A stretch of 64,000 bases of DNA from Rhodocyclaceae bacterium. Its GTDB lineage: Bacteria > Pseudomonadota > Gammaproteobacteria > Burkholderiales > Rhodocyclaceae. The stretch lies in contig JAEUNL010000016.1 of the NCBI GenBank assembly GCA_016791115.1, positions 36,878 through 100,877 on the forward strand, read 5' to 3'. The position numbers and the translations under genes were made by a program. This document shows, piece after piece, positions 15,594 through 33,746 of the stretch (the stretch's first letter is position 1; each line of letters begins with the position of its first letter). Under the pieces are notes generated by a model, which did not search any database, was not told the DNA's origin, and was given only the letters and a program-made list of their open reading frames with translations.

Positions 15594-17054
15594 ATGACCG
15601 AAAACACTGCACGCAAACCCCGCCTGCTGATCGTCGACGACGATCAGCTCATCACTGAAACTCTGGGCTTCGTGCTCGGCGATTTGTTCGAGATATTCGT
15701 CGCACACACACGGGCGGAAGGCATCGCGGTTCTGCGCGCCATGCCGGCCCTGCCTGAGGTCGCGCTGATCGACCTCGGCCTGCCACCGGCCGTGCACCGG
15801 CCCGACGAAGGCTTCGCCCTGATCGCCGACCTGCTGGCCCATGACGCCCGGATGCGCATCGTCGTGCTCTCGGGGCAGAACGACGAATCGAACGCCCGAC
15901 ACGCCCGCGCCCTCGGCGCGCTGGACTTCATCGCCAAGCCGGCGGTACCGCAGTTGCTGCGTGCGGCCCTCGCGCGCGCCCTGCAGACACGCGGGGAGCC
16001 GGCGGCCAGCCCTGAAATCGCGCCCGGATGCCAGCTCATCGGACAGTCCATGGCGATGCGGAAGCTGCGCACGCAGATTGCGCAGTTCGCCGAATCGCCC
16101 TTTCCGGTACTAATCGAAGGCGAATCGGGCAGCGGCAAGGATGTCGTCGCCTCGTGCTGCCTGCACCAGCAGACGAGCCGCCGCGACCGCCCTTTCCTGG
16201 CGCTCAACTGTGCCGCCATCGCCCCGTCGCTGGTCGAGCCGACGCTTTTCGGCTATGCCAAGGGCGCGTTCACCGGCGCCCTCTCTAACCGGGCCGGCTA
16301 TTTCGAAGACGCACGGGATGGCACCCTGTTTCTCGACGAGATCGGCGAACTGCCGCTCGACCTGCAGCCCAAGCTGCTGCGCGTGCTGGAGAACGGCGAG
16401 TACCAGCGCGTGGGCGAGACACAGACCCGCGTGTCGCGTGCGCGCATCGTTGCGGCGACGAATCGCGACCTGCGTGCCGAGATCCGTGCCGGCCGCTTTC
16501 GCGCCGACCTGTACCATCGCCTGTCCGTCTTCACCCTCAGCGTGCCACCGTTGAGGGAAATGGACGACGATCGGCTGCTGCTGCTCGACCACTTTCGCAG
16601 GCAGTTGTCGCGACAGTCCGGCGCCGCGGAATTCCGCCTCGACGCGGCCGCACAAGCGCGCCTTGCGAAATACCACTTCCCCGGCAACGTGCGCGAGTTG
16701 CGCAACATCGTCGTGCGCCTGATGGCAAAGCATCCCGGCGAGACGCTGAACGCGGCCGGCGTCGAGACCGAACTCGATCTGTATGATTGCGCGCGAACGG
16801 GCGCAAACTCGGCGCAGGGCATCGCCGCAATCGCCCTCGGCGAGTTGCAATCGCAGGCGAACTTTTCGCTGGAAGACAAGCTGCGCAGCTGGGAGAACGG
16901 CTACATCGAAGCGGCGCTGAAACTTACTCGCGGCAATGTCAGCCAGGCGGCGCGCCTGCTCGGCATCAACCGCACGACGCTGTACAACCGCATGGAATTG
17001 CTGGCGAAGGACAAGCCTTCCGCGGGAGAATCCGCGCCGACCGGCAGCGATTGA
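15594..17054 (+). CDS. sigma-54-dependent response regulator (REC + AAA+ enhancer-binding + Fis-type HTH), PrsR-like receiver
   Basis: Trimmed to the ATG at 15594 ([17 protein letters not shown]). It has a receiver Asp context (LIDLGLPP), Walker A (GESGSGKD), the GAFTGA sigma-54 contact loop and a C-terminal HTH ([21 protein letters not shown]). Confidence 0.9.
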
Positions 17055-17073
17055 ACGAGGCACACGAGCGGAC

Positions 17074-18576
17074 ATGTATTTCGAGTACTTCGGCCTGAAC
17101 GAAGCTCCGTTTCGGATCACGCCCCACACCGACTTCTTCTTTGCGGGCGCCAACCGCGGCGCCACGCTGGAAGCCCTCGTCTACGCAATTCTTCATGACC
17201 AGGGAATCGTGCGCGTCACCGGGGAAGTCGGCAGCGGCAAGACGATGCTCTGCAGGATGCTGGCGCAGTCGCTGCCCGGGCATGTCGATACGATCTACCT
17301 GGCGAATCCATTGCTGACGCGCGACGAAATCGTCCACGCACTGGCCGATGAGCTGCAACTCAAACTCGATGCGCAGCACCCCGGGGCGCTCCTGGGCGCG
17401 CTCCAGGCGCACCTGATCGAGCGCCATGCCGCCGGCCGGCATGTCGTCGCGCTGATCGACGAAGCGCATGCCATGCCGCCGGAAACGCTGGAACAAATCC
17501 GCCTGCTGTCGAACCTGGAGACCAGTCGGGACAAGCTGCTGCAGATCGTCCTTTTCGGTCAGCCGGAACTCGACCAGATGCTGGCGCGACCGGACATGCG
17601 CCAGTTGCGCGACCGGATCACGCACAGCTTCCGCCTCGAGCCACTGGTGCGCAGCGACGTCGCCGAGTACGTGGATTTCCGCATGCGCGCCGCCGGTTAC
17701 CGCGGCCCGACGGTATTCTCGTCGAGCGCGATCCGACTGCTTGCGCGTGCCTCGCAGGGGCTCACGCGGCGCATCAACATCCTGGCCGACAAGGCGCTGT
17801 TGGCCGCCTATGCAGCCAATAGCCATCACGTCGGCCGACCGCACGTTGCGGCCGCCGTGCGGGATACCGACACCCCGTCGGCCGCTCGAACCGGGCGGCA
17901 ATGGGCGCTGGCAATCGCGATCCTGCTGGTATGTGCAACCGGTGCCGCATACTGGTGGCGCGCAACGCATCAGGATCCGCAAGCAGCCCGTTCTGACACC
18001 GTGCTGGGAAGCGCGGCGCCGACCCCCGTCGCACCGGCGCCGGCACCTCACGCACCAACCGAGCAGGCCCAGACCGGCAAACCGACGCAGCTCGCCGCTG
18101 CCCCAGGCGGCTTGGTCGATATGCCACTGGCCCCCGCACGCGAACTGGCTGCCGCCACCAACCCGGCGCCCACCGTCCCGGCTGCCGAAGCGGTCGTCGA
18201 TAGCGCCCTGCCCGCGACGGCCGGCCTGCCGGATCTGGATCCGGCACTCGCGAAGTTCGGGGATGACTTCGCCAGGCGCCTCGCGGCATCGGAAAGGTGG
18301 CGGCGCGAAGCCGCGCAGCAAACCTGGGTCATCCAGCTGGCAACGGCAGAAGCGAGGGATCCGGCATCGCTGCGGAAATACCTGGCCCGCACCGGCCAGC
18401 AGGTCGACAACTCGAAGTTGCGGTTGTTTCTGGACCGCAGCAACCAGCGCATGCGCATCGGCGTCATTTACGGAGAATATTCCTCTGCCAGCGAGGCACG
18501 CGATGCCCTGCGCACCCTTCCCCAGTCGGTGCGCAATCAGGGTGCCTATGCCCGGCAATTGGCCTCACTTGGCTGA
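17074..18576 (+). CDS. ExeA/GspA/MshM-like AAA+ ATPase with a TM segment, Pro/Ala-rich linker and C-terminal SPOR-like domain
   Basis: Trimmed to the ATG at 17074. The N-terminus (MYFEYFGLNEAPFRITP) is typical of ExeA/MshM, and Walker A is GEVGSGKT. The TM segment is WALAIAILLVCATGAAYWW. The C-terminal 80 aa (WVIQLATAE...IGVIYGEYSSASEARDALRTLPQSVRNQGAYARQL) resemble the DamX-type SPOR fold. Confidence 0.85.
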   Translation: MYFEYFGLNEAPFRITPHTDFFFAGANRGATLEALVYAILHDQGIVRVTGEVGSGKTMLCRMLAQSLPGHVDTIYLANPLLTRDEIVHALADELQLKLDAQHPGALLGALQAHLIERHAAGRHVVALIDEAHAMPPETLEQIRLLSNLETSRDKLLQIVLFGQPELDQMLARPDMRQLRDRITHSFRLEPLVRSDVAEYVDFRMRAAGYRGPTVFSSSAIRLLARASQGLTRRINILADKALLAAYAANSHHVGRPHVAAAVRDTDTPSAARTGRQWALAIAILLVCATGAAYWWRATHQDPQAARSDTVLGSAAPTPVAPAPAPHAPTEQAQTGKPTQLAAAPGGLVDMPLAPARELAAATNPAPTVPAAEAVVDSALPATAGLPDLDPALAKFGDDFARRLAASERWRREAAQQTWVIQLATAEARDPASLRKYLARTGQQVDNSKLRLFLDRSNQRMRIGVIYGEYSSASEARDALRTLPQSVRNQGAYARQLASLG

Positions 18577-18674
18577 GGGCACAGCCAGAAACATGGATAG
18601 ATCAATCAAATCAGCTTGTTGCCTTTCGTTTTTGATGTAACATGGTGAAGTAACCAACTCTTGGTCTGTACTTC

Positions 18675-20612
18675 ATGGCACATAAGACGGGGTGCGCCGC
18701 GTCCGTACGCCTCATCGGATGTGCGGTGTCGTTGCTGATCGCCGGGTGCACGACGGCGCCACCGGTTACGCCATCCGCAAGTCACATTGCCGCCGATCAA
18801 GCGGGCACGACACCGCCTTCCGGCTCAATACCGAAGCCGGTCGACCTTCCCGTCGCCCTGCCCAAACCCAAGCCCGCTCCCCGGCTGGAGACCTATTCGG
18901 TCGTCGTCAACAACGTGAAGGTGCAGGAACTGCTGTTTGCGCTGGCGCGCGACGCGAAGATCAACGTCGACGTGCATCCCGGCCTCGGCGGCACTGTCAC
19001 GCTCAACGCGATCGACCAGACGCTGCCGCAGTTGCTCGCGAGGATCGCAAAGCAGGTCGATATGCGTTACGAGCTGGACGGCCCCAACCTGGTTGTCATG
19101 CCGGACTCGCCGTTCCTGCGCACCTACCGCGTCGACTACGTCAACCTTTCACGCGACACCAGCGGTTCCGTTTCGATCAACACCCAGATCACCTCGGCGA
19201 GCACGGCCACAGGCACCAGCGCCGCGACTGGTGGATCGGCAATCGGCGGCTCGAACAACTCGACGACGGAAGTACGCAACACCGGACGCAACCATTTCTG
19301 GGAGTCGCTGGAGAAGAACATCAAGGACATCCTGCGGGAGACCGACAAGATTCTGCCCGAAGGGTCCAGCGAAACGGTAATCGAGAGCGAAGACATCCAG
19401 ACGACCACCGGCACCGGCGCACAGACAACCAGCCGTGGGCGCAACAACCACAACAGCGCACAGCCGTCGATCGCCGGCAGCCCGAGCCCTGCGTCCGTAC
19501 AGGCCAGCGGCACGCAAATCGTGCGCCGTGCGACCTTTCGCGAAGCCGCCTCCGTGATCGTGAACGCCGAAACCGGTGTCGTGACAGTACGCGCAACGTC
19601 GCGCCAGCACGAGAAGATCCAGGAATTCGTGGATAACGTGATGAACAGCGCCAAACGCCAGGTGCTGATCGAAGCGACGATCGCGGAAGTCGCGCTCAGC
19701 AAGAACTATCAGCAGGGTATCGACTGGCAGGCGCTGTCGCGAGGAGGCAAGGGGTTCTCGTTCTCGCAGGCCGGCACCAATGTGTTGCGCGAGGAAAGGC
19801 TGCAGTTGATCAATGCCGATGGCACGGCGACGGGAACCCTGGTCAATCCGTCGCGCCTGAGCAATGTCATCCAGGTTCCGGGCGGCAATCTGCCCTCGGG
19901 CGTGACGGACAGCCTCATCGTCATGGCCTATCGCAGCGCGAATTTCGCCGCAAGCGTCAAGCTGCTCGAGTCCTTCGGCACCGTGAAAGTGCTCTCCAGC
20001 CCCAAGCTCTCCGTCCTGAACAACCAGACGGCGATCCTCAAGGTAGTCGACAACATCGTCTACTTCGAAATCAAGGCCGACACGACCGCCAATGCGAACA
20101 ACACGCTGACGACGATCACCACGACACCACGTTCGGTATCCGTGGGGCTGGTGATGAGCGTGACGCCACAGGTCAGCGAGAGTGACAGCGTGCTGCTCAA
20201 CGTTCGTCCGACGATCTCGCGCGTCACCGGCTTTGTCTCCGACCCCAATCCGAACATTCCGTCGTCGATCGGCAACCGCGTGCCGCAGATCCAGACGCGC
20301 GAGATGGAATCGATGCTGCGCGTCACCGACGGAGAAATCGCGGTACTCGGCGGATTGATGCAGGACGACATCGATTACAAGACCGACGCCGTACCGGGCA
20401 TATCGCGCATCCCGCTGATCGGGAATATGTTCACCTATCGCAACGACACGAACACCAAGACCGAACTCGTGATCTTCCTGCGTCCGATCGTGATTCGCGA
20501 GCCCAGCCTCGACGGGGACTATCGAAGCTACAGGGATCGGCTGCCGACCCCCGAATACTTCAGAAACAATCCCAATCCGCCTTTGCCGCAATGGGAACTG
20601 GGAACAAAGTGA
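18675..20612 (+). CDS. secretin, lipoprotein type (MshL/GspD/PilQ family)
   Basis: The 645-aa ORF has a lipobox (LLIAGC), an N-terminal secretin N-domain (VKVQELLFALARDAKINVDV) and a C-terminal secretin core (VLSSPKLSVLNNQTA...VPGISRIPLIGNMF...ELVIFLRP). Confidence 0.9.
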   Translation: MAHKTGCAASVRLIGCAVSLLIAGCTTAPPVTPSASHIAADQAGTTPPSGSIPKPVDLPVALPKPKPAPRLETYSVVVNNVKVQELLFALARDAKINVDVHPGLGGTVTLNAIDQTLPQLLARIAKQVDMRYELDGPNLVVMPDSPFLRTYRVDYVNLSRDTSGSVSINTQITSASTATGTSAATGGSAIGGSNNSTTEVRNTGRNHFWESLEKNIKDILRETDKILPEGSSETVIESEDIQTTTGTGAQTTSRGRNNHNSAQPSIAGSPSPASVQASGTQIVRRATFREAASVIVNAETGVVTVRATSRQHEKIQEFVDNVMNSAKRQVLIEATIAEVALSKNYQQGIDWQALSRGGKGFSFSQAGTNVLREERLQLINADGTATGTLVNPSRLSNVIQVPGGNLPSGVTDSLIVMAYRSANFAASVKLLESFGTVKVLSSPKLSVLNNQTAILKVVDNIVYFEIKADTTANANNTLTTITTTPRSVSVGLVMSVTPQVSESDSVLLNVRPTISRVTGFVSDPNPNIPSSIGNRVPQIQTREMESMLRVTDGEIAVLGGLMQDDIDYKTDAVPGISRIPLIGNMFTYRNDTNTKTELVIFLRPIVIREPSLDGDYRSYRDRLPTPEYFRNNPNPPLPQWELGTK

Positions 20613-20649
20613 CCGCCTTTCGCAGCAACGTCCCGCCCGGAGCCGCGCA

Positions 20650-21972
20650 ATGAGCCTGCTCATGGACGCGCTGAAAAAGGCCGAGGCCGCCAAGCGCCAG
20701 GCCGCGCCGAGCGCGGACGACCATGCGGCAGCCGACGATGCAGGCACCGCGGTCGAACCCGGCAAGCCCCTTCCCGAACTGCCGCGCGAACTCTCGCTGC
20801 TCGACGATCAGTTTCCTTCTGCGCAAACGGACGCTGCGGGTGCCGGACCACGTCCCCAGGGTTCGGTTTCGGCGGTCAGCGAAAACCAGCGTGAGCGCGA
20901 GGCCGCGCACAACCTCTTTGCTGCGAAACGCACGGCTTCCCGCGCCCCTTTCTGGATTGGTTTGAGCCTGACGACACTGGTCGCAGTAGGCGCAATCGGC
21001 ACCTGGTTCTGGTGGCAATTGCAGCCGCGTCCGGGTGGCCTGCAGCCCGGGCCGGCTCTCGGCCGGGGTGCCCCGCCGCCGCAGGCGGCAGCAAGCGTGC
21101 CAGTCGCGCCAACAGCTTCGCCAGCCGCATCGCCAACGCTGGCGGCTGCTCCCCCGCCCACCGAAGCCGGTTCGCCGGCCCGTGACACGAAACCGCCGGA
21201 CTCTGCACTCCCGGCAGCAGCGGCAATCGAGCGACCGACTTCCGCCGGCATTGCCAGAGCAACGCGAACCCCGAGCGCGACACCGGCCGCGTCCGCCAGC
21301 GATCCCACGCGTGCAGGCAGGCTCGGCGCAGAAGCGCCCGTCGAACAAGCGCCGGAGCCTCTTCCCGGCGTGCGTGCGCACCGAGGAACGACCGCTCGCG
21401 ATACCGTGCATCCCCTGGTAGCGAAGGGCTATGCGGCGTTCAACGCGGGTGACCTCGATGCCGCGAAACGCCACTACGACGAGGCGCTGCGCATGGAACC
21501 GCGCTCGCTCGACGCACTAAACGGTATGGCGGCCGTCGCGTTGCGCGCCGGGCGCCGAGACGTCGCGGAAAGCTATCTTGCTCGCGTACTCGAAATCGAC
21601 CCGAAGGACGGCTTTGCACTCGCAGCGTCGACATCCCTGCGCAGCAGGGTCGATGCGCAATCGGCCGAAAGCCGCTTCAAGGCACTGATCGCCGCCGCGC
21701 CGGAATCGCCGGCTGCGCATTTCGGCCTCGGCAACCTGTATGCGCGCGAAGGTCGCTGGTCGGAGGCGCAGCAAGCCTATTTCCGGGCCTACACGGCCGA
21801 ACCGGACAATCCCGATTTCCTGTTCAACCTGGCGGTCAGTCTCGACCATCTGAAGCAGACGAAGCTCGCAAGACAGTACTACCAGAGCGCGCTCGCGACA
21901 GCTCGCCAGGGCGCCTTCGATCGCGAACAGGCCGGGGCGCGCATCCGCGAACTGGATCAAACCGGTCGCTAG
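20650..21972 (+). CDS. bitopic TPR-repeat protein with a GspB/MshN-like N-terminus
   Basis: The 440-aa ORF begins MSLLMDALKKAEAAKRQ, a motif I recall from GspB/ExeB/MshN-type partners of ExeA. It has a TM segment (FWIGLSLTTLVAVGAIGTWFWW), a linker of about 130 aa rich in Pro, Ala and Ser, and C-terminal TPR repeats. Confidence 0.72.
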   Translation: MSLLMDALKKAEAAKRQAAPSADDHAAADDAGTAVEPGKPLPELPRELSLLDDQFPSAQTDAAGAGPRPQGSVSAVSENQREREAAHNLFAAKRTASRAPFWIGLSLTTLVAVGAIGTWFWWQLQPRPGGLQPGPALGRGAPPPQAAASVPVAPTASPAASPTLAAAPPPTEAGSPARDTKPPDSALPAAAAIERPTSAGIARATRTPSATPAASASDPTRAGRLGAEAPVEQAPEPLPGVRAHRGTTARDTVHPLVAKGYAAFNAGDLDAAKRHYDEALRMEPRSLDALNGMAAVALRAGRRDVAESYLARVLEIDPKDGFALAASTSLRSRVDAQSAESRFKALIAAAPESPAAHFGLGNLYAREGRWSEAQQAYFRAYTAEPDNPDFLFNLAVSLDHLKQTKLARQYYQSALATARQGAFDREQAGARIRELDQTGR

Positions 21973-21995: not shown

Positions 21996-23708
21996 ATGAA
22001 CGCCCCGACGAACCCGAGCCGCCGACCGCTGGGCCAGGTGCTGATTGCGCAAGGCGTGATCAGCGAGGACCAATTGCGCATCGCGTTGCTGGAACAGGGC
22101 AAATCGAACCTGCCGATCGGACGCCTGCTCGTCACGCTGGGCTTCGTATCCGAAGCCACGTTGCGCGAAGCGCTGTCGCAAACGCTGGGAAAGCGCAGCG
22201 TCGACGTATCGAGCGCGATCGTCGACCCGGCTGCGCTGCAACTGGTTCCGCGCGAACTCGCCAAGCGCCTGCGCCTGCTGCCGATGAGTTTTGATGCCGG
22301 AATGCGCCAACTGCAGATCGCGCTTGCCGACGTCAACGACATCGTCGCACTCGACAAACTGCGCGGCGTCCTGCCCGAGGATGTCGAGATCGAGACCGTG
22401 CTGGCCGGCGAGTCCGAGATCGCCCGCGCCATCGACCAGCACTACGGCCACGAACTCTCGATCGACGGCATCCTGACCGAGATCGAAACCGGCGAAATCG
22501 ACTACCGCGGGCTAGCTGCGCTGACCGACGAATACTCGCAGCCGGTCGTGCGCCTGATCGATGCACTGCTCACCGATGCGGTGAAACGCGACGCCTCCGA
22601 CATCCATTTCGAGCCAGAAGGCAGCTTCCTGCGCATCCGTTACCGCATCGACGGACTGCTGCGCCAGATCCGCGCCCTGCACAAGAGCTACTGGCCCGCG
22701 ATGGCGGTGCGCATCAAGGTCATGGCCAACCTCAATATCGCCGAGACGCGCGCACCGCAGGATGGCCGCATCTCGCTGAACATCAGCGGACGCCCGGTGG
22801 ATTTCCGCGTCAGCGCGCAGCCAACGATCCATGGCGAGAACATCGTGCTGCGGATCCTCGATCGCCAGAAGGGCATCGTCGCGCTGGACGACCTCGGGCT
22901 GTCCGAGCACCAGCTCGACATGCTCAAGCTGATGATCGCGCGGCCGGAAGGCATCGTGCTCGTGACCGGACCCACCGGCAGCGGCAAGACGACCACGCTC
23001 TACTCGATCCTCAACCACATCAGCTACGAGGGCATCAACATCATGACCCTCGAGGATCCGGTCGAATACCCGATGGCGATGATTCGCCAGACCTCGGTGG
23101 CGGAAGCCTCCAAGCTCGATTTCGCGAACGGCGTGCGGTCGATGATGCGCCAGGATCCCGACGTCATCCTGGTCGGCGAGATCCGTGATTCGGACACGGC
23201 GGAGATGGCATTCCGCGCGGCGATGACCGGCCACCAAGTATTCTCGACGCTACACACGAATTCCGCGATCGGCGTGATTCCGCGTCTGCTCGACATCGGC
23301 ATCCTTCCGGACATCATGGCCGGCAATATCATCGGGGTCGTCGCGCAGCGGCTGGTGCGCCGCCTGTGTCCGCACTGCCGCGAACCCTATATCGCCGATC
23401 CGATCGAGACGAGGCTGATCGGCATCTCGAGCGACCGCCCGGTGCATACGCTGTATCGCGCCGTCGGTTGCGACCGCTGCGACTATCAGGGCTACCGCGG
23501 ACGCCTCGCGGTGATGGAACTGATGCGCATGGACGCAGATCTCGATGAACTGATCGCACGCCGCGCGACCTTTCGCGAGATCCGCAATGCCGCGCGCGCC
23601 AAGGGCTTCCGCTCGCTCGCGGAGGACGGCATGCGTCGCGTGCTCGAGGGCGTCACCTCGCTCGAGGAGGTCGGTCGCGTCGTCGATCTAACAGAGCGGA
23701 TGGGCTGA
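21996..23708 (+). CDS. GspE/PilB/MshE-family secretion ATPase with an MshEN-like N-terminal domain
   Basis: The 570-aa ORF has Walker A (GPTGSGKTTT), Asp box, Walker B and His box, and a tetracysteine pattern (CPHC...CDRC). The N-terminus carries tandem 24-residue repeats resembling the MshEN c-di-GMP motif. Confidence 0.93.
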   Translation: MNAPTNPSRRPLGQVLIAQGVISEDQLRIALLEQGKSNLPIGRLLVTLGFVSEATLREALSQTLGKRSVDVSSAIVDPAALQLVPRELAKRLRLLPMSFDAGMRQLQIALADVNDIVALDKLRGVLPEDVEIETVLAGESEIARAIDQHYGHELSIDGILTEIETGEIDYRGLAALTDEYSQPVVRLIDALLTDAVKRDASDIHFEPEGSFLRIRYRIDGLLRQIRALHKSYWPAMAVRIKVMANLNIAETRAPQDGRISLNISGRPVDFRVSAQPTIHGENIVLRILDRQKGIVALDDLGLSEHQLDMLKLMIARPEGIVLVTGPTGSGKTTTLYSILNHISYEGINIMTLEDPVEYPMAMIRQTSVAEASKLDFANGVRSMMRQDPDVILVGEIRDSDTAEMAFRAAMTGHQVFSTLHTNSAIGVIPRLLDIGILPDIMAGNIIGVVAQRLVRRLCPHCREPYIADPIETRLIGISSDRPVHTLYRAVGCDRCDYQGYRGRLAVMELMRMDADLDELIARRATFREIRNAARAKGFRSLAEDGMRRVLEGVTSLEEVGRVVDLTERMG

Positions 23709-26453: not shown

Positions 26454-27061
26454 ATCCGGGGTTGATATTCCGCCATGTCCGCTGGGCGCTGCTCGCCCTC
26501 GTGCTCATGCTGGCCGCCGGCACGGCAGCGGTTCACTTTTCCACCGGTTTCCGCGAACAGGCCATCGCCGCTCAACACGCCGCGATGGCGGCCCGCGCCG
26601 ACGCGCAGGGCAAGCTGTCGCGCGCCCGCGAGGAAGAGCAGGAACTGCGCGCGAGCGCCGCACGCCACGACGAATTGCGCCGCCACGGCATACTCGGCGA
26701 GGAACGCCGGCTGGACTGGGTGGAGCGCATGCGGACGATACGCGACACCCGCCGCATCCACGACCTGCGTTACGAGATTGCGCCGCAAAAGGCGTTGTCG
26801 GCACCGGCCGGCGGCCGTTACCAGTTCATGGCCAGCTCGATGCGATTGAGCCTGCTATTGCTGCACGAGGAAGATCTGCTGCGCGTGCTGCACGACTTGC
26901 GCGAGGACGTGTCGGCGCATGTGCGCACGCGCCGGTGCAGTGTGGAACGCCTGCCCGCGCCGGTCCAGCAATCCGCCACGGTCGCCCCGCAACTCAAGGC
27001 GGAATGCGAACTCGACTGGATCACCGTGCGTGACATGCAGCCAGGCGGGGCAAAGCCATGA
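26450..27061 (+). CDS. bitopic protein, GspM/PilO/MshJ-like by architecture
   Basis: This is the 3' part of track ORF 25328..27061. The ATG at 26450 overlaps the upstream stop in an ATGA. The product (MNPGLIFRHVRWALLALVLMLAAGTAAV) has a TM segment, a coiled coil and a small periplasmic domain. Total length is 203 aa. Confidence 0.55.
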   Translation: MNPGLIFRHVRWALLALVLMLAAGTAAVHFSTGFREQAIAAQHAAMAARADAQGKLSRAREEEQELRASAARHDELRRHGILGEERRLDWVERMRTIRDTRRIHDLRYEIAPQKALSAPAGGRYQFMASSMRLSLLLLHEEDLLRVLHDLREDVSAHVRTRRCSVERLPAPVQQSATVAPQLKAECELDWITVRDMQPGGAKP

Positions 27062-27489
27062 ACCGCCACGCGCGGTGCATCGCACTGTTGGCCATCGCGC
27101 TGGCGGGACCGCTGTTCGCGGCCGATCCGGCCCCGCTGGGCCGCCTGTTCTTCACACCCGAAAAACGCGCCGAACTGGACCGCGAGCGCAGTCTGGGCCA
27201 GCGCCAGACGCAGCAGATCGAGTCGGCGGACGTAAGCCTCGAAGGCATCGTGCGCCGAAGCAGCGGCCGCAACACCGTCTGGCTCAACGGCAGACCGCAC
27301 GACATGGGCCATCCGCGCGACGGCATCCTGGTCAACGTCGGGCCGGATGCAACGACCGCGCGCGTGCGCATCGGCGACGACGCGCCGGCCGATCTCCGCG
27401 TCGGCGAGTCGATCAACCGCGGCACCGGCGAGCGGCGCAGCGGATTGGGCAACGGCCAGGTCAGCGCGCAACGCGCCGGCCGGCCCTGA
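27058..27489 (+). CDS. small secreted protein, PilP/MshK-like by position
   Basis: The 143-aa ORF has a signal peptide (MNRHARCIALLAIALAGPLFAADP). Its start overlaps the upstream stop in an ATGA. Confidence 0.5.
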   Translation: MNRHARCIALLAIALAGPLFAADPAPLGRLFFTPEKRAELDRERSLGQRQTQQIESADVSLEGIVRRSSGRNTVWLNGRPHDMGHPRDGILVNVGPDATTARVRIGDDAPADLRVGESINRGTGERRSGLGNGQVSAQRAGRP

Positions 27490-27497: not shown

Positions 27498-28709
27498 ATG
27501 CCCGGCGGCACGCACCCGCGCCGCAACCACGGCTATGCGCTTCTCGCGCTGGTTACCCTGCTTGGATTGTTCACGCTGTTGGCCGTCGTACGTTTCGTGC
27601 GCGTCGCGGGCGCAGACCAGAATGCGGTGGAACACGATTCGGCGGTGTTGAACCAGGCCAAGGAGGCATTGCTGGGATACGCAGCCACGTACCGCGATAC
27701 GCACGCCTCCATTCCGCCGCCGAGCGTCGGCTTCCTGCCTTGTCCGGCCAGCGACGGCAACGGATCCGCAGCGGGGGCGTGCTCGGTCCAGGGCTCCGCG
27801 GTAGCGGGAATGCTTCCGTTCCGCACCCTGAGCCTGCCCGATCTTCGTGACTCCCGAGGTGAATGCCTTTGGTATGCGGTCGCGGGAACGGCGAAGAACT
27901 CGCCCAGCCTGCTGCAATTCAACTGGGACGTGCAGGGACAGTTCGTGATCCGCGACGCCAACGGCAACCCCCTGGCAACGGCCCCCAACAGCGCAGACGG
28001 CGGCCCGGTCGCGGCGATCATCGCAGTCGGCCCGCCGATCGGCGCGCAATCGCGCGCCAGGGCATCGACTACATGCGGCCACACGCCTGTCCTGGCGCAG
28101 TTCATCGAGGGTGGCCCCGTCTTCCCGAACGCCGGCATCGTCGACCTGCGCAGCGGCGCGGCAGGCAGCCAGACGGCGAACGACCGCGTAGTCTGGATCA
28201 CCGGCAAGGAGTTGTTCGACCGCATCGACAAGCGCGCAGACTTTGCCCCGATGCTCAACGGCCTGATCGACGAAATGGCAAGCTGCCTCGGCTACGGCCT
28301 GCCGGCGCCGGTCTCACCGAGCACGACATTCGGTACCAATACGTTCGGCATTGTCCCGAACGTGACGACGAGCGGCACACCGAGCATCTGCCCGCCTTCC
28401 GGCGTTTCGGTGAATACCGACCAGATCCAACTGTGGCGCAACTGGCGCGAGTTGTTCCGCTATATGCGCTGCGGGGGCGGCACCCAGTGCGCAACGGTCA
28501 ATGCGGCAGCCTGCCGCGGCGTGCTGATCTTCGGCGGCAAGCGCGCAAGCGGGCAGAGCCGCGCCACGGTGACGGACAAGGCCAGCGCAGGAAATTATCT
28601 CGAAGGCACCATTCTGGGAACCTGGACGGCCGGCGGACTCCACTACGTCGGGCCGGGCGTGTACGATCCCGCCTCGCCTGCCAACGACGTGGTCCGCTGC
28701 CTCAACTGA
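27498..28709 (+). CDS. large Cys-rich pilin-like or minor-pseudopilin-like protein with a non-canonical N-terminus
   Basis: This is the 3' part of track ORF 26919..28709, from the ATG at 27498. The product (MPGGTHPRRNHGYALLALVTLLGLFTLLAVV) has a hydrophobic N-terminal helix after a Gly but no Glu at +5. It is 403 aa with many Cys residues. It shares an EALLG[YF]A...LPCPA motif with the next gene. Confidence 0.55.
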   Translation: MPGGTHPRRNHGYALLALVTLLGLFTLLAVVRFVRVAGADQNAVEHDSAVLNQAKEALLGYAATYRDTHASIPPPSVGFLPCPASDGNGSAAGACSVQGSAVAGMLPFRTLSLPDLRDSRGECLWYAVAGTAKNSPSLLQFNWDVQGQFVIRDANGNPLATAPNSADGGPVAAIIAVGPPIGAQSRARASTTCGHTPVLAQFIEGGPVFPNAGIVDLRSGAAGSQTANDRVVWITGKELFDRIDKRADFAPMLNGLIDEMASCLGYGLPAPVSPSTTFGTNTFGIVPNVTTSGTPSICPPSGVSVNTDQIQLWRNWRELFRYMRCGGGTQCATVNAAACRGVLIFGGKRASGQSRATVTDKASAGNYLEGTILGTWTAGGLHYVGPGVYDPASPANDVVRCLN

Positions 28710-28713
28710 TGCC

Positions 28714-29535
28714 ATGAGCGACCGCCCACTCCGACCCGCCCCTCGTGCTGGAAATCGCGGCTTCACGCTCGCCGAGATGGCGGTCGTGTTGTTCATCATC
28801 GTGCTGCTGGTGGGCGGTTTGCTGGTTCCGCTGGCGGCGCAGGTCGAGGCGCGCAAGGTCGCCGAGACGCGCCGCACCCTGGCCGACATCGGCGAGGCAT
28901 TACTTGGCTTTGCAGTCTCGCAGGGACGCCTTCCCTGCCCGGCAGCCGGAGGCGCCACCGGAGTGGAAGCGCCCGCCGGCGGCGGCACCTGCACCAACCC
29001 TTACGATGGCTTCGTGCCCGGCGTGACGCTCGGCATCACGCCAACCGACGATGCCGGCTACGTGATCGACGCATGGGGGCAGCGCATCCGCTACGCGGTC
29101 AGCCGCGATCCGACCAGTGGAACCATGTCGTCCAACGCCGCCAGCACGCCCCGCTGGAGCTTCACATCGACCAACGGCATGCGCAATACCGTGGCGAATG
29201 CGGGCTGCACCACCGGCATCGCCTGCCTGCATCCGGATCTCCACATCTGCTCGACCGGCAGCGCAAGCGCCCAGCAGACGTGCGCCGGCACGCTGCTGGC
29301 GGACAGCGCCGTCGCCGTCTGGTACTCGCTTGGCAGAAACGGTGTGACCGGCGGAACCGGCACCGACGAATCCCAGAATCCGAACCCGAATTTCGCCTAC
29401 GCCAACGACCGCGTGTTCCTCAGCCACGAACCCACGGCTGCCGGCGCCAGCGGCGGCGAGTTCGACGACATCGTGAGCTGGCTCTCGCCCAACGTGCTCT
29501 ACAGCCGCATGATCGCCGCCGGCCGCCTGCCTTGA
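28714..29535 (+). CDS. prepilin-type N-terminal cleavage/methylation domain protein (large pilin or pseudopilin, 273 aa)
   Basis: MSDRPLRPAPRAGNRG|FTLAEMAVVLFIIVLLVGG is a canonical G-FTLxE class III signal. The C-terminus has FDDIVSWLSPNVLYSRMIAAGRLP. Confidence 0.8.
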   Translation: MSDRPLRPAPRAGNRGFTLAEMAVVLFIIVLLVGGLLVPLAAQVEARKVAETRRTLADIGEALLGFAVSQGRLPCPAAGGATGVEAPAGGGTCTNPYDGFVPGVTLGITPTDDAGYVIDAWGQRIRYAVSRDPTSGTMSSNAASTPRWSFTSTNGMRNTVANAGCTTGIACLHPDLHICSTGSASAQQTCAGTLLADSAVAVWYSLGRNGVTGGTGTDESQNPNPNFAYANDRVFLSHEPTAAGASGGEFDDIVSWLSPNVLYSRMIAAGRLP

Positions 29536-29784
29536 GCGAACCGCGCCCACGCCAGGACCCGCATGGACTGGCGCTCCTGGCACGGCATGTCCGGTAACGC
29601 GCATGGGATGGTCGTTTTCAGGCATGCCGCCCGGTAACGTCCGGTCCATGCGGCTCACGGGGCATCGCGCTGCGCCGGCGATACGGGATCGCCGGGATTG
29701 ACCGGCCACGTTCCTTGCAGCGACACTTGAGTTCCGTCGCATAATGCCGACAAGGTAGTGTTACACCCGCGGAGCAAGACCGAT

Positions 29785-31110
29785 ATGGCCGGACAGGCCG
29801 CCCCTTCGAGATTCGTCGATAGATTGCGCAACGCCGGCATCGAGCCGGGCGACAGCGACGAGCTGCGCCTGAACAAGGCGCTGCTGGTGTTTGCCACCGG
29901 CCTGGTGAGCGTCGCGTCGACCCTGTGGCTGGCGATCTACTGGAGCCTTGGCCCGCAACTGTCGGCCACGCTGCCGTTCGCGTTCCAGATCCTGCTCGCC
30001 GGCAACCTGCTGGTCTATCTGAAGACCGGCAATTTCAATTTCTTCCGCATCGCGCAGCTCGGGCTGTTCCTCTTCTTCCCGTTCGTCGCACAGTGGAGCA
30101 TCGGCAATTTCATCACCGCGTCGGGGCTGATCCTGTGGGGGCTGCTGGCGCCGATCGGGGCCATCCTCTGCTTCGGCGTGCGCGAGTCGATCGCCTGGTT
30201 TTTCGCCTACGTTTTCCTGGTCGCGCTGACCGGCTTCTTCGACTATTACCTCGCCGACGCCGTGCCGGTATCGGCCGCCACGCGGATTCCGATCCGCACC
30301 TCGGTGTTCTTCTTCGCGCTGAACTTCGTCGCGATCTCGTCGATGGTGTATCTGCTGCTGCGTTTCTCGATCCAGGAGAAGCAGAAGATCGAATCGAAGC
30401 TCGCCGAAGCCCACCGCCTGTTGCAGATCGAGCAGGACCGCTCGGAGCGCCTGCTGCTCAACATCCTGCCGGGCCCGATCGCCGAGCGCCTGAAGAACAG
30501 CAACCAGACCATCGCCGACGGCTTCGCCGACGTCACCGTGATGTTCGCCGACATCGTGAACTTCACCCAGGTCGCGAGCGGCATGACGCCTTCGCAGGTG
30601 TTCGCGATGCTCAACCGCATCTTCTCGGTGTGGGACGAACTGGCGGAAAAGTACGGCATCGAGAAGATCAAGACCATCGGCGACGCCTACATGGTGGCCG
30701 GCGGCCTCAACGATGCGCGCGAGGACTACTCCGCCGCCATCGCCGACCTCGCGCTCGAAATGCGCGATCTGCTGCACCGGGATTTCAACGTCAACGACCG
30801 CCATCTCGACGTGCGCATCGGCATCGGCACCGGTCCGGTGGTTGCCGGCGTGGTCGGCAAAAAGAAGTTCATCTACGACCTGTGGGGCGACACGGTGAAT
30901 ATCGCCAGCCGCATCACCACGGAAGGGACGCCCGGCATGGTCCAGTGCGACGCTGCGACCTGGCGCCGCCTGAAAGGCAATTTCGTGTTCGACGAGCCGC
31001 AGGTGCTGTACCTGAAGGGCAAGGGCAACATGACCGTCTATCGCCTGCAGGGCCGCAACCAGCAGGCAACACCCGGCGCAGCACGCGCCGTCGCCGTCGG
31101 CATGCGCTGA
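29785..31110 (+). CDS. membrane-anchored class III adenylate cyclase
   Basis: I took the ATG at 29785, preceded by GGAGC. The track ORF starts at a GTG at 29758. About six TM helices are followed by a CYCc domain (FADIVNFT, KIKTIGDAYMV, YDLWGDTVNIASR). The Lys (KTIGD) and Asp (YDLWG) specificity pair predicts ATP as substrate. Confidence 0.88.
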   Translation: MAGQAAPSRFVDRLRNAGIEPGDSDELRLNKALLVFATGLVSVASTLWLAIYWSLGPQLSATLPFAFQILLAGNLLVYLKTGNFNFFRIAQLGLFLFFPFVAQWSIGNFITASGLILWGLLAPIGAILCFGVRESIAWFFAYVFLVALTGFFDYYLADAVPVSAATRIPIRTSVFFFALNFVAISSMVYLLLRFSIQEKQKIESKLAEAHRLLQIEQDRSERLLLNILPGPIAERLKNSNQTIADGFADVTVMFADIVNFTQVASGMTPSQVFAMLNRIFSVWDELAEKYGIEKIKTIGDAYMVAGGLNDAREDYSAAIADLALEMRDLLHRDFNVNDRHLDVRIGIGTGPVVAGVVGKKKFIYDLWGDTVNIASRITTEGTPGMVQCDAATWRRLKGNFVFDEPQVLYLKGKGNMTVYRLQGRNQQATPGAARAVAVGMR

Positions 31111-31134
31111 GCGGACGCCCGGCAAGGCGCCGGC

Positions 31135-32889
31135 TCAATTCGGCAGCAGGCGCCGGTGCAGCCGGAAACAGACATGCCCCGCCTGGTTGGCCTGCAATTC
31201 GAGGCGATAGCCCAGTCCTTCGGCCTGCCGCGCCACTTGATACAGGCCGATGCCGAACCCGCCTGCGGACTCGACCGGACCACGCATCAGTTTCGCCGCC
31301 AGGTCATCGGCGATCGGCGATCCGCTGTCGCAGACCGAAAACTCGATCGCTTCTCCCGCAGAAAAGCTCGCCGAAATGCGCAACCCGGTTTCGTGCAACC
31401 GCTTGTCGAGCGCGTTCTGCAGCAGGTTTTCCGCCACCGAGTTGAACAGGCCGCTCGGCACCTCGGCGGCGGGATCGATCCCGCCTTCCGTGAAATCGAT
31501 GGCAGCGCTCCCATAGCGCTGCCCGAGGTCGGCCCACCATGACGCTGCCCGCTGCCAGACAACCGGTTGCTCCTCCGGCCGGCGCAGCTTGTCCAGCGTC
31601 TGCTGCAGGCGCTGCGTGATCACCGGCAATTGCCGGCGCAACAGCCGCTGGAACTCGGCGGAGTTGTCGCCGTCCTGCCATTCCGCCGCGAAGCACAAGG
31701 TGTTGAGCGATTGCAGCAGGTTCTTCACGTCGTGCGTGACACGCGCGCCGGTTTCATGCACGGCCTGCACATAGCTCAGGCGCTGCAACTGGCCTGCATG
31801 AACCTTGGCGAGGTAGAACTCGCCCAGCAACCGCGCCAGGAGGCCGAAGTGCCAGGACAGCGCCGGCGACAGGCGCTGGGACGTATAAAGCGTGACCGTG
31901 AGCGGGCCGTGGCGATACTCGGTCTTCTGCCCCTCCAGCCTGCCGAAGCGCCCGCTGCGATCTTCCGCACGTTCACCCGCGCGCCACTCGCCGCCGCCGA
32001 CCCAGGGCAACCGCGCAAGTCCGGCGAATGCATCGTCGAGGAAGGCGGCAGGGTCGTCCTGGCGCATCGCGTGCTCGGCCAGGTGGTGCATCCACTGCTC
32101 GAAAGGCAGGCCGACCGACAGGACGTGCCGGCTTAACAGCACGCCGAGGCCCGAGAACCCAGCCCGTGGATTCCATGCCCAGCCCAGCAGCAGCAGCAGC
32201 ACCGCCAGCGAAAGCAGCGTCAGCATGAGCGACTCCGCGTACCCTGCCGCGCGCACCAGCATGAATGCAAGGCAGCCGAGCATCAGCACCGCGAGCAACA
32301 GGAACAGGATGATGCCGGAGAACAGGTCAACGACTTCCGCCTCGTCCCGCTCCGCGTCTTCGACCGGCAGGATGGCCATGAGCGGAAACATAAGCGGCAG
32401 CACATAGCGCGCGACCAGATCGAACCCGCCCGGCAGTTGCTCGCTCATCGGCAGCAAGGGTGGCAACAGCAGAACCAGCATCAGAACCAGCAGGTAGCCC
32501 AATGCCAACAGGTAGAACAGCCGCAACCATCGCGATCCGAAGAAGAACACCTTGCCGCCAACGATCGCCGTCAGCACCATGGTCCAGGCGATCATCAGCC
32601 AGCCGTTGAGAAAGACGATGAAGCCGGTCACTGCCGCGGCAAGCACCACCAGTTCCAGTGGCCCAAGGCGGCGCTCCGCCCGCACGATCGGCTGCCACAG
32701 CAGGAACAAGCCGAAGTGGCCGACCAACAATGTGCGTGCTATCGGTGACGGAACGCCCTGCACGATCGAAAGATGGAGCAGCACGAGCAACGCGAGCAGC
32801 AGGTAGCGGCGGTATCGCGCCACAAACGCAACAATCGCAGCGAGACCGGCATGGTCGTGCGGGTGTTCCAGTTCTCGTCGGGATTCCAT
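31135..32889 (-). CDS. polytopic sensor histidine kinase, PrsK-like
   Basis: The 584-aa ORF has about 7-8 N-terminal TM helices, the H-box THDVKNLLQSL, and an HATPase_c domain (NLLQNALDK...GFGIGLYQV). It runs divergently from the pilin gene. Confidence 0.85.
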   Translation of the reverse strand: MESRRELEHPHDHAGLAAIVAFVARYRRYLLLALLVLLHLSIVQGVPSPIARTLLVGHFGLFLLWQPIVRAERRLGPLELVVLAAAVTGFIVFLNGWLMIAWTMVLTAIVGGKVFFFGSRWLRLFYLLALGYLLVLMLVLLLPPLLPMSEQLPGGFDLVARYVLPLMFPLMAILPVEDAERDEAEVVDLFSGIILFLLLAVLMLGCLAFMLVRAAGYAESLMLTLLSLAVLLLLLGWAWNPRAGFSGLGVLLSRHVLSVGLPFEQWMHHLAEHAMRQDDPAAFLDDAFAGLARLPWVGGGEWRAGERAEDRSGRFGRLEGQKTEYRHGPLTVTLYTSQRLSPALSWHFGLLARLLGEFYLAKVHAGQLQRLSYVQAVHETGARVTHDVKNLLQSLNTLCFAAEWQDGDNSAEFQRLLRRQLPVITQRLQQTLDKLRRPEEQPVVWQRAASWWADLGQRYGSAAIDFTEGGIDPAAEVPSGLFNSVAENLLQNALDKRLHETGLRISASFSAGEAIEFSVCDSGSPIADDLAAKLMRGPVESAGGFGIGLYQVARQAEGLGYRLELQANQAGHVCFRLHRRLLPN

Positions 32890-33043
32890 GGCGACTCGGG
32901 TCGGGGCAGCACACCTCGAAACGCGTCACCGGACCCGTCGCGGCCGGCGGGCAGAAGTGACGACCTACGGACGCAAGTGTCGAATTCCCGACACCCTGCC
33001 GATCAAAACAGGCGAATTATCCCATCCCTTGCGCGATTTCCAC

Positions 33044-33059
33044 TGGCACGCGGATTGCT
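33044..33059 (+). promoter_or_regulatory. sigma-54 (-24/-12) promoter of the pilin gene
   Basis: TGGCAC-GCGGA-TTGCT is an exact match to the TGGCAC-N5-TTGCW consensus. It ends 34 nt upstream of the pilin ATG at 33093. Confidence 0.72.
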
Positions 33060-33092
33060 GAGTGATGGCCATCATCCTCAGGAACCTGCGCC

Positions 33093-33746
33093 ATGCCGAA
33101 TCGCCAATCAGGCTTCACCCTCGTCGAAATCGCGATCGTACTGGTCATCATCGGCCTGCTGCTCGGCGGCGTTCTGAAGGGCCAGGAATTGATCAACAGC
33201 GCGAAGGTGAAGAACTTCGCGCAGGACTTCCGTTCGGTGCCGCTATTCATTTACGGATACCAGGACAAGTTCAAGGCCTTGCCGGGTGATGACCTCAAGG
33301 CCGTCGAGCACCTCGGCACGGGCACGCCTGTTCCAACCGGCACGTCGGCGGGCAACGGTGCAATCGACGGATACTGGAACGATGGGCAATCAGCGGCAAG
33401 CGAGGCCGTGATTTTCTGGGACCACGTCCGTCGCGCCAACCTGGCATCCGGCCCCTTCCCGATCAACACCAATGCCGACCTCCCGACCAACGCCGATGGC
33501 GGCCGCATCGGCATACAGTCGGCCAAGCCGGTCGCCGACATGACAGGTTCGTACTACATTTGCTCAGGTGGAATTCTCGGAAAATTCGCCAAGCAGCTCG
33601 ACATCACCATGGACGACGGCAAGACGACGACCGGCTCGATGCGCGTCGGCACCTGGGCGAGCAACGCCCTGACGACGGTCGCCGAGTCGGGAACCGGCAC
33701 GATCATCGACGACGGCCAGCCCTACGTCGTGTGCCTCGGATTCTGA
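33093..33746 (+). CDS. type IV pilin / pseudopilin (prepilin-type N-terminal methylation domain), 217 aa
   Basis: MPNRQSG|FTLVEIAIVLVIIGLLLGG is a canonical class III signal peptide. The gene is monocistronic, with its own promoter and terminator. Confidence 0.88.
   Translation: MPNRQSGFTLVEIAIVLVIIGLLLGGVLKGQELINSAKVKNFAQDFRSVPLFIYGYQDKFKALPGDDLKAVEHLGTGTPVPTGTSAGNGAIDGYWNDGQSAASEAVIFWDHVRRANLASGPFPINTNADLPTNADGGRIGIQSAKPVADMTGSYYICSGGILGKFAKQLDITMDDGKTTTGSMRVGTWASNALTTVAESGTGTIIDDGQPYVVCLGF

Follow-up and report, generated by a model that had tools for sequence, protein, structure and literature searches.

We analysed a 64,000-nt window of the Rhodocyclaceae bacterium contig JAEUNL010000016.1 (GCA_016791115.1), in which an 18.2-kb cluster of type IV filament and regulatory genes lies between mlaF and kdsD. 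The window is the whole stretch of DNA under study, and all coordinates are window positions. Genes for a secretin, a motor ATPase, an inner-membrane platform, three orphan assembly proteins (u513, u203, and u143) and three pilin-like proteins (u403, p273, and a 217-aa pilin) are accompanied by genes for a sigma-54 enhancer-binding response regulator (EBP), a polytopic histidine kinase, and an adenylate cyclase. The G+C content of the window is 64–68%, which makes raw lists of open reading frames (ORFs) noisy. The gene models in Table 1 were set by the third-position GC of each reading frame together with the choice and context of start codons. An initial annotation of the same DNA had listed 14 cluster genes, and all 14 are found at the coordinates given there. 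Thirteen gene models were looked up by exact sequence, and each is identical to a deposited protein of an uncultured Rhodocyclaceae metagenome-assembled genome (MAG). Cluster proteins of this uncultured lineage are present on more than 200 metagenome contigs.

Table 1. Features of the interval from mlaF to kdsD, in order of position (TM, transmembrane helix; TPR, tetratricopeptide repeat).
Feature	Coordinates	Strand	Basis or remark
mlaF, left boundary gene	14644–15549	-	MlaF and ABC_tran matches; true start perhaps ~100 nt inside the ORF
Sigma-54 enhancer-binding response regulator (EBP)	15594–17054	+	REC, AAA+, and HTH_8
MshM/ExeA-like AAA ATPase with SPOR-like periplasmic C-terminal domain	17074–18576	+	AAA_22
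MshL-type secretin, probable lipoprotein	18675–20612	+	TIGR02519; lipobox LIAGC
MshN-like TPR protein	20650–21972	+	Multiple TPR families; one TM
MshE-type extension ATPase	21996–23708	+	T2SSE and N-terminal MshEN
GspF/PilC/MshG-type inner-membrane platform	23708–24910	+	T2SSF, two repeats
u513, MshI/GspL analogue, 513 aa	24912–26453	+	Predicted PilM-like actin fold, TM, periplasmic alpha/beta domain
u203, bitopic, putative MshJ/PilO/GspM analogue	26450–27061	+	Position, size, and topology only
u143, small secreted protein, putative MshK/PilP analogue	27058–27489	+	Order, size, and topology only
u403, 403-aa pilin-like protein, candidate tip subunit or adhesin	27498–28709	+	G|YALLAL N-terminus, no Glu5
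p273, 273-aa minor pilin-like protein	28714–29535	+	N_methyl; 16-aa leader, G|FTLAE
Six-TM class IIIa adenylate cyclase, Rv1625c/Cya-like	29785–31110	+	Guanylate_cyc
Polytopic histidine kinase, PrsK-like, presumed EBP partner	31135–32889	-	HATPase_c; at least 6 TM
Inverted repeat TGTCGAATTCCCGACA, candidate EBP binding site (upstream activating sequence)	32978–32993	.	TGTCG-N6-CGACA
Sigma-54 promoter TGGCACGCGGATTGC (-24/-12)	33044–33058	+	Exact TGGCAC-N5-TTGC consensus
Major pilin candidate, 217 aa	33093–33746	+	Leader MPNRQSG|FTLVE
Intrinsic terminator-like hairpin, 3' of the pilin gene	33774–33797	+	10-bp stem, 8 GC pairs, T-rich tail
KefB/KefC-like CPA2 K+ efflux protein	33804–35777	-	Na_H_Exchanger, TrkA_N, TrkA_C
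kdsD, right boundary gene; then kdsC, lptC, lptA	35895–36890	+	TIGR00393

For comparison, 80 kdsD loci with 10-kb flanks were collected, and the window proteins were mapped onto them. The order of the cluster core is retained, at 37–90% identity, in L081 (Sterolibacteriaceae), L082 (Ca. Nitricoxidivorans), L083 (the cultured Propionivibrio dicarboxylicus), L084 (a deltaproteobacterium), and the two MAGs L085 and L086.

The secretin scores 255.2 bits against the MshL equivalog TIGR02519 and passes its cutoff of 250.2 bits. It is already named "pilus (MSHA type) biogenesis protein MshL" by PGAP and IMG, and it also matches Secretin and Secretin_N_2 of Pfam. The models for GspD (TIGR02517, 174.2 versus 351.35 bits), PilQ (TIGR02515, 125.2 versus 284.35 bits), and SctC stay below cutoff. 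The best matches among PDB sequences are GspD from type II secretion systems (T2SS; 9e-23) and PilQ (3e-20). The N-terminus contains the lipobox LIAGC, suggesting that the secretin is probably a lipoprotein.

The extension ATPase matches T2SSE (431 bits) and carries an N-terminal MshEN domain (PF05157, 54.5 bits). It passes the c-di-GMP-binding, MshE-related model NF053729 (60.7 bits, cutoff 38), and its residues 4–150 match the crystallised N-domain of Vibrio cholerae MshE (5HTL, E = 2e-17). Two 24-residue motifs, xLGxxLIxxGVIxxxxLxxxLxxQ and xIGxxLVxxGFVxxxxLxxxLxQ, are positioned 5 residues apart within its first 60 residues. The protein scores below the equivalogs for GspE (TIGR02533, 529.8 versus 630.25 bits) and PilB (TIGR02538, 517 versus 675.65 bits). 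The platform protein contains two T2SSF repeats (163 bits) and likewise stays below the equivalogs for GspF (TIGR02120, 291.2 versus 424 bits) and PilC.

Upstream of these genes, the MshM/ExeA-like ATPase matches AAA_22 (100.5 bits) and TIGR03015 (218 bits, cutoff 324.5), with a TM at residues 277–295. The initial annotation had described it as an ExeA-like ATPase with a SPOR domain. The ATPase part of this description is borne out, and the SPOR match is borderline (20.8 bits versus a gathering score of 21; DamX in the PDB, E = 0.66). The C-terminal domain in question is conserved in 6 orthologues. The TPR protein has a TM at residues 99–117 and occupies the same position in L081, L082, and L084–L086.

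The three proteins that follow the platform had been called unassigned assembly proteins. None of them belongs to a known sequence family, and u513 can now be placed as PilM/GspL-like by its predicted structure. No match to u513 is found in Pfam, NCBIfam, or PDB sequences. The AlphaFold2 model of u513 (pLDDT 85.7, from a 35-sequence alignment) has an actin-like fold in residues 1–290, followed by a TM (residues 305–323), a long helix, and a periplasmic alpha/beta domain. When the model is searched with Foldseek, PilM (5eou) is the best match (E = 1e-10), and FtsA and the cytoplasmic domains of EpsL/GspL (1yf5, 4pht, and 5tkw) are also matched. The TM-score against 4pht is 0.64, normalised to target length. 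By its modelled architecture, which is that of GspL and MshI, u513 is predicted to be the MshI/GspL analogue of the cluster. An exhaustive profile search collects 2849 u513-family representatives clustered at 50% identity, 1331 of them at E ≤ 1e-30. A Pfam scan of ten remote representatives for a link to PilM, PilN, or GspL gives no match in any of the ten. Therefore, u513 belongs to a large unannotated family. Its members are seen in both Beta- and Deltaproteobacteria, and the gene order around them is always M-L-(N)-E-G-I'-J'-K'.

In all loci examined, the genes for u203 and u143 adjoin that for u513, and like u513 the two proteins match nothing in Pfam, NCBIfam, or PDB sequences. A periplasmic domain follows an N-terminal TM and a coiled coil in u203, which is conserved in orthologues and has no Pfam or PDB match even across the orthologue set. 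In u143, a signal peptide is followed by ~120 residues, and no Pfam match is found even across the orthologue set. A side observation is that an LGRLF motif, which belongs to no known family, is invariant in all nine aligned orthologues of u143 directly after the signal peptide; its extended form is LGRLF(F/Y)(T/S)(P/D)xxR. Order, size, and topology suggest that u203 may be MshJ/PilO/GspM-like and u143 MshK/PilP-like. An hhalign comparison of the periplasmic half of u513 with u203, in search of a PilN/PilO- or GspL/GspM-like kinship, finds none (probability 4%). Across the cluster proteins, Pfam PilM, PilN, PilO, and PilP give no match.

Three proteins carry pilin-like N-terminal signals: G|FTLVE in the 217-aa pilin, G|FTLAE in p273, and the Glu5-less G|YALLAL in u403. 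Of these, p273 and the 217-aa pilin are canonical prepilins. The 217-aa protein is the candidate for the major pilin; it scores 33.3 bits against N_methyl and 24.1 bits against TIGR02532 (cutoff 16.3). The N_methyl score of p273 is 22.3 bits. Beyond the N-methyl motif, the pilin-like proteins give only weak N-terminal GspG/GspH matches.

In the orthologues of u403, RQRG is followed by a hydrophobic stretch. This N-terminus probably resembles the signature of GspK/PilX-type minor pilins. The AlphaFold2 model of u403 is confident (pLDDT 86.5, pTM 0.83), and Foldseek finds no fold match for it in the PDB (best E ~1). Therefore, the GspK/PilX kinship is drawn from the N-terminal signature only. 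Of all cluster proteins, u403 evolves fastest: it shows no alignment over half its length in L081 and is 29–35% identical in three other loci, and its orthologues range from 390 to 1104 aa. Rapid evolution with such variation in size is in keeping with an exposed position, making u403 a candidate tip subunit or adhesin. The orthologues (L085 12610–15924; P0133–P0156) fall in size classes of about 400, 460–530, 660–700, and 1104 aa, suggesting modular C-terminal additions, as in adhesins. Some relatives of u403 are labelled 'pseudopilin PulG' by IMG.

The pilin gene is monocistronic, lying between a sigma-54 promoter and a terminator-like hairpin. The exact consensus TGGCAC-N5-TTGC is positioned 35 nt before the pilin ATG, and the 64 kb contain no second exact match to it, consistent with the sigma-54-driven pilin gene of the initial annotation. 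The inverted repeat lies 51 nt upstream of the -24 element and is the only exact TGTCG-N6-CGACA in the window. Among the first 82 loci, three of the four exact matches to this pattern lie just upstream of the orthologous pilin promoter. The repeat is also present in L085, and near-matches are present in L081, L082, and L065. A GG-N10-GC promoter precedes the pilin gene in all 11 kinase-bearing loci (the window, L010, L013, L015, L022, L029, L031, L065, L081, L082, and L085) and in none of the five kinase-less loci (L001, L007, L012, L019, and L084). The Fisher p of this co-occurrence is 3e-4, computed on 10 versus 5 loci; because the loci share ancestry, this corresponds to about three truly independent events.

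The EBP matches Response_reg, Sigma54_activat (212.8 bits), and HTH_8 in Pfam, and it is an exact match to a deposited protein. The kinase has at least 6 TM, an H-box THDVKN, and HATPase_c; no HisKA or PAS domain is detected in it by domain scans. No PilS- or PilR-specific model is matched. The closest NCBIfam models of the EBP are NtrC and the PEP-CTERM regulator PrsR, and that of the kinase is PrsK, a weak match; all are below cutoff. As in the PilS-PilR/pilA systems of Pseudomonas aeruginosa and other type IVa pili (T4aP), a membrane-bound polytopic kinase, a sigma-54 EBP response regulator, and a -24/-12 promoter just upstream of a major pilin gene that forms a transcription unit of its own are all present, and the kinase gene adjoins the pilin gene. 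Unlike in PilS-PilR, the kinase and regulator are nearest to the PrsK and PrsR/NtrC models, and their genes are far apart. The likeness is one of logic, and orthology is not claimed. The earlier description of the cluster as a regulated type IV filament module holds.

The cyclase scores 179 bits against Guanylate_cyc and matches PDB 7yzi (E = 3e-58) over residues 96–435, which cover the TM and catalytic regions. It shares the six TM, helical linker, and class IIIa catalytic domain of Mycobacterium tuberculosis Rv1625c (Cya). It keeps the aligned Lys (EKIKTIGD) and Asp (YDLWGD), which we take to be the ATP-specifying K296 and D365 of Rv1625c. Unlike Rv1625c, the cyclase here is embedded in a pilus cluster and conserved along with it. 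It is 73–91% identical across orthologous clusters, as conserved as MshE, which argues that the cyclase is an integral part of the cluster.

The mlaF|kdsD junction is truly split in the window. At the left boundary, the mlaF (-) and EBP (+) genes are divergent; the left boundary gene scores 353.9 bits against the MlaF model NF008809, below the cutoff of 441 yet its best match by far, and mlaE, mlaD, an mlaA-like gene, mlaC, and mlaB sit upstream of it. At the right boundary, KdsD TIGR00393 scores 355.7 bits (cutoff 203.7), and the KdsC, LptC, and LptA models are also over cutoff. The distance between mlaF and kdsD is 20.3 kb rather than 18.2 kb because kefB also lies between them. This KefB/C-like gene belongs to the junction and not to the pilus cluster: the arrangement mlaF|kefB|kdsD occurs in L006 and L030, where the cluster is absent. 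In E. coli K-12, we confirmed the order murA-ibaG-mlaBCDEF | yrbG-kdsD-kdsC-lptCAB-rpoN directly. Both halves of this E. coli-type junction had been reported for the window. The mla genes and kdsD-kdsC-lptC-lptA are indeed there; lptB and rpoN, unlike in E. coli, do not come after lptA. Instead, an enoyl-CoA hydratase gene (38620–39411; 468 bits, cutoff 396) begins inside the last codons of lptA.

Among relatives, six Rhodocyclaceae/Azoarcus genomes (L004, L009, L011, and L016–L018) and four gammaproteobacterial loci have mlaF and kdsD side by side in divergent orientation. Together with E. coli, these loci bear out the earlier statement that the cluster sits where mlaF and kdsD adjoin in relatives. 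In at least 11 betaproteobacterial loci, the stretch upstream of kefB-kdsD or kdsD holds the distal part of the cluster. L081 has the identical order from the EBP gene to pilin-kefB-kdsD. In L082, mlaE-mlaF is followed by the cluster and then by other genes. L083 has mlaF|M-L-E-G-u513-u203-u143-u403-p273-cyclase, without EBP, TPR, kinase, and pilin genes. The distant MAG L085 has mlaF|cluster|kdsD with no kefB (u513 identity 37%), and in L084 the cluster core lies in an unrelated genomic context. In L086, mlaF is followed by the cluster and then by VgrG genes. Here, positions 16421–19985, directly after the cyclase gene, hold a DUF6861 gene and a PoNi_C gene besides the VgrG-type genes (Phage_GPD; Phage_base_V/Gp5); all of these occupy the place of the kinase and pilin genes of the window.

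Identity to L081 is 91% for MshE, 91% for the cyclase, 90% for the pilin, 83% for MshG, 62% for u513, 54% for u203 and u143, and 38% for p273. A side comparison of L081, L082, and L085 gives the same picture: the pilin and cyclase are as conserved as the motor ATPase and stand above u513, u203, and u143 (54–62%), and the minor pilin-like proteins are below 40%. A major pilin more conserved than its assembly machinery is unusual.

The initial annotation spoke of an island, a word that suggests acquisition. One reading along this line is that a recently acquired genomic island, brought by horizontal transfer, disrupts the mlaF|kdsD junction here. The cluster is patchy in Rhodocyclaceae, the genomes with a contiguous junction (L004, L009, L011, and L016–L018) being about as close by KdsD identity (67–73%) as the cluster carriers, and the deltaproteobacterium L084 holds the same module in a different context; both observations would fit a recent arrival. 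However, the composition of the 18 kb is indistinguishable from that of the flanks (tetranucleotide r = 0.99; GC3 0.71–0.90 versus 0.73–0.88). No tRNA, Rfam element, or boundary repeat is found at the cluster, and no integrase domain in any island ORF. The same mlaF-proximal site is occupied in the deeply diverged Sterolibacteriaceae, Ca. Nitricoxidivorans, Propionivibrio, and distant MAG lineages, with u513 identities of 37–62%, and in cluster-bearing mlaF-proximal loci the cluster proteins have diverged in step with the flanking genes. The native composition and conserved synteny lead us to reject a recent island, which we regard as very improbable, and the word island does not hold in its sense of acquisition. 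Since the composition is that of the flanks, the insertion is ancient. The split is an old one, inherited widely; Azoarcus-type lineages have either lost it or never had it.

Taking the assembly proteins together, the 18.2-kb cluster is probably an intact MSHA-class (T4aP-derived) type IV pilus locus, a little-studied variant of a known machine. In a study of the type IV filament superfamily, the mandatory MSH genes are mshA, E, G, L, and M, and all MSH loci are single and without a prepilin peptidase (Denise et al. 2019; PMC6668835). The cluster is a single peptidase-less locus with the mandatory MshL (by a small margin) and the mandatory MshE with its MshEN domain; for the mandatory MshG and MshM, T2SSF twice and AAA_22 are detected, at the domain level only, and for the mandatory MshA the cluster offers a pilin with a class III signal peptide. 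A canonical T4aP is not indicated, as the PilB and PilQ models are below cutoff and the PilM-like domain does not stand alone but shares one protein with a TM and a periplasmic domain. The class had been left unknown, a description that the passed MshL equivalog, the MSHA-type name in PGAP and IMG, and the c-di-GMP domain MshEN overturn.

The absence of certain genes fits the same class. No second T2SSE-family ATPase, such as a PilT-type retraction ATPase, is found within the 64-kb window, and no prepilin peptidase domain in any scanned ORF of the window. These absences, pointed out before, are real and not peculiar, because they are the norm for the MSH class (PMC6668835; PMC4624765). For the same reason the module is not self-contained, contrary to what had been proposed: MSH loci normally lack the peptidase, and V. 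cholerae MSHA uses a PilT encoded elsewhere, in trans (PMC4624765).

In V. cholerae, MshI is GspL-like, MshJ is PilO-like, MshM is ExeA-like (43% identical to ExeA), and MshE binds c-di-GMP (PMC4624765). The cluster resembles the V. cholerae MSHA locus (VC0399–VC0414) in its MshL-type secretin and its MshE with MshEN, in a putative ExeA-like MshM, an MshN-like TPR protein, and a putative MshG platform, in a predicted GspL-like fused counterpart of MshI with two small proteins after it, and in being a single locus with neither prepilin peptidase nor retraction ATPase. It differs in gene order. The V. cholerae operons are mshI-F (mshIJKLMNEGF) and mshB-Q (mshBACDOPQ) (PMC4624765), whereas the order here is M-L-N-E-G-I'-J'-K', then minor pilins and, further on, the pilin. 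The initial annotation was right on this difference. It had also set, as a test of its own reading, the known MSHA class combined with the gene order of characterised strains; we find the class but not the order. Unlike in V. cholerae, the putative MshM here has a TM and a SPOR-like periplasmic domain, there is no MshF, and the locus itself includes a sigma-54 two-component pair and an adenylate cyclase, with the pilin under a sigma-54 promoter.

Several points weigh against an MSHA-class pilus regulated by the embedded pair. The secretin exceeds the MshL cutoff by only 5 bits. The ATPase is intermediate between GspE and PilB, and the platform between GspF and PilC, and no such equivalog is passed. 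Position 1 of both MshEN motifs is Pro, where the published consensus is presumably Arg. No known family resembles the I/J/K analogues in sequence, and the roles of u203 and u143 are drawn from size, order, and topology alone. The 217-aa pilin aligns with V. cholerae MshA (9lab) over the N-terminal 22 residues only (E = 0.69), and three pilin-like genes, one of a novel fold, stand against the seven structural genes (mshB-Q) of Vibrio. The kinase and EBP genes sit at the two ends of the cluster, 14 kb from each other, and we infer their pairing from co-occurrence among related, non-independent loci.

A different machine could also be built from these parts. In a T2SS-like machine, a short pseudopilus would push substrates through the secretin and no long adhesive pilus would be made. 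Like GspL, u513 joins cytoplasmic, TM, and periplasmic parts in one protein, and the EpsL/GspL cytoplasmic domains (1yf5, 4pht, and 5tkw) align with its model; motor and platform are of the GspE/GspF family. ExeA/GspA-like ATPases with a peptidoglycan-binding-type domain are T2SS accessories in Aeromonas and Vibrio. An ATPase of this accessory type is present here, and, as in T2SS with ExeA/ExeB (GspA/GspB), its periplasmic domain could assist secretin assembly. GspD is the best PDB sequence match of the secretin (9e-23 versus 3e-20 for PilQ), weak GspG/GspH matches are the only family signal of the pilin-like proteins beyond N-methyl, and 'pseudopilin PulG' is the IMG name of some u403 relatives. 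However, the GspD, GspE, and GspF equivalogs are all below cutoff while MshL passes, no GspC-type protein is present (no PDZ or HR domain found), and three pilin-like genes are too few for the five pseudopilins GspG-K. A SPOR-like domain takes the place of PG_binding_1. The pilin gene has its own strong sigma-54 promoter and terminator, as do the major pilins of long filaments, and no candidate substrate genes are conserved beside the cluster across loci. We therefore consider a T2SS-like machine unlikely. The closest regulatory models raise another alternative, namely that the cluster carries out export or assembly for an exopolysaccharide (floc-formation) system of the PEP-CTERM/exosortase type under a PrsK/PrsR-type pair, with no pilus at all. 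PrsR (337.8 bits) for the EBP, pepcterm_ATPase (218 bits) for the AAA ATPase, PrsK (44.9 bits) for the kinase, and PrsT for the TPR protein are indeed the closest models, but the scores are far below the cutoffs of 502.6, 324.5, 300, and 312 bits, respectively. No exosortase, PEP-CTERM protein, or polysaccharide gene lies in or beside the cluster at any locus, and a full pilus motor, platform, and prepilins are present. We rejected this alternative because of the low scores and the lack of exosortase genes nearby; its probability is minimal, the lowest of the readings weighed here.

Gene content, folds, motifs, promoter, and synteny are observed directly. For an MSHA-class pilus, a mechanism can be proposed on top of them, in which orphan-protein roles, the kinase-EBP pairing, ligand binding, and biological function are all conditional. 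The lipoprotein MshL secretin would form the outer-membrane pore, with the MshM/ExeA-like bitopic ATPase and the TPR MshN-like protein aiding its assembly; the SPOR-like periplasmic domain of the ATPase probably binds peptidoglycan. The MshE ATPase and the MshG platform would polymerise the pilins, and the alignment subcomplex would consist of the fused PilM/GspL-like u513, the PilO/GspM-like bitopic u203, and the small periplasmic u143. The 217-aa pilin would make up the filament body, primed or capped by p273 and the GspK/PilX-type u403, whose novel fold would likely form an adhesive tip. Pilin supply may follow a PilS-PilR logic, in which the kinase and EBP activate the pilin gene through the TGTCG-N6-CGACA site and the -24/-12 promoter. 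As with V. cholerae MshE, c-di-GMP may govern extension by binding the ATPase at its MshEN domain, and the six-TM adenylate cyclase would add a cAMP link. The prepilin peptidase, any retraction ATPase, and RpoN would be supplied from elsewhere in the genome. As to history, the cluster was probably inserted long ago between mlaF and kefB-kdsD and inherited vertically since, while Azoarcus-type lineages lost it or never had it. The pilus likely serves to attach cells to surfaces or to aggregate them.

A further claim can be put forward only tentatively, and we hold it to be possible but not favoured: that the u513-u203-u143-u403 set marks a distinct, widespread, uncharacterised type IV filament subtype, with a diverged alignment subcomplex, a new-fold tip protein, and a cyclase coupling the membrane state of the pilus or pilin to cAMP beside c-di-GMP gating of the motor. 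If so, a single locus would encode a device that senses surfaces through two second messengers.

The kind of machine is known already, and the secretin is labelled MSHA-type in public annotation. A literature search for this cluster in Rhodocyclales, Zoogloea, or Accumulibacter found nothing relevant. Several features appear to be undescribed: the alternative gene order, which is fixed; the alignment proteins that are sequence orphans (a large family for which Pfam has no model); the small set of pilins, one of them with a novel fold; the putative MshM, whose periplasmic domain is SPOR-like; and the sigma-54 pair and adenylate cyclase within the locus. Outside Gammaproteobacteria, MSHA-type machines can thus vary in gene order, alignment-protein families, minor-pilin set, and regulation, and both the u513 family and the pilin-like u403 of unknown fold deserve annotation. 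Activated-sludge flocs and granules are dominated by Rhodocyclaceae, and attachment and aggregation are important there. In this family the cluster is a well-defined, conserved candidate adhesion organelle. Because it is also present in cultivable relatives such as Propionivibrio dicarboxylicus, it is testable. The inverted repeat, sigma-54 promoter, pilin gene, and terminator form a clean, predictable regulatory unit for experiments. The mlaF|kdsD junction, unsurprising in itself, is a useful synteny marker.

Several minor features surround the cluster. In the region of lptA and the enoyl-CoA hydratase gene (38030–39411), an LptB-like match after lptA is found in none of the closest related loci of the window and is present in more distant betaproteobacteria. 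Downstream of the hydratase gene lie an EamA-type transporter gene (-) and then a phasin gene. Two genes on the mla side are not so placed in E. coli: an MlaA/VacJ-like lipoprotein gene (12498–13331) between mlaC and mlaD (mla region 9591–13331), and an ABC-2 type ATPase gene (10483–11385) between murA and mlaB. Directly downstream of murA, positions 1–8060 (-) hold a histidine biosynthesis operon (hisF, hisA, hisH, hisB ... hisD, hisG) and a Methyltransf_32 gene. At the other end of the window (49561–60472), an extracytoplasmic function sigma factor gene (49561–50082) lies on the strand opposite to its minus-strand neighbours. Three TonB-dependent receptor genes (-) lie within 50884–53169, 56203–58263, and 58313–60472, together with a CHASE8-HisKA-HATPase-REC-Hpt hybrid kinase gene (52848–55625, -).

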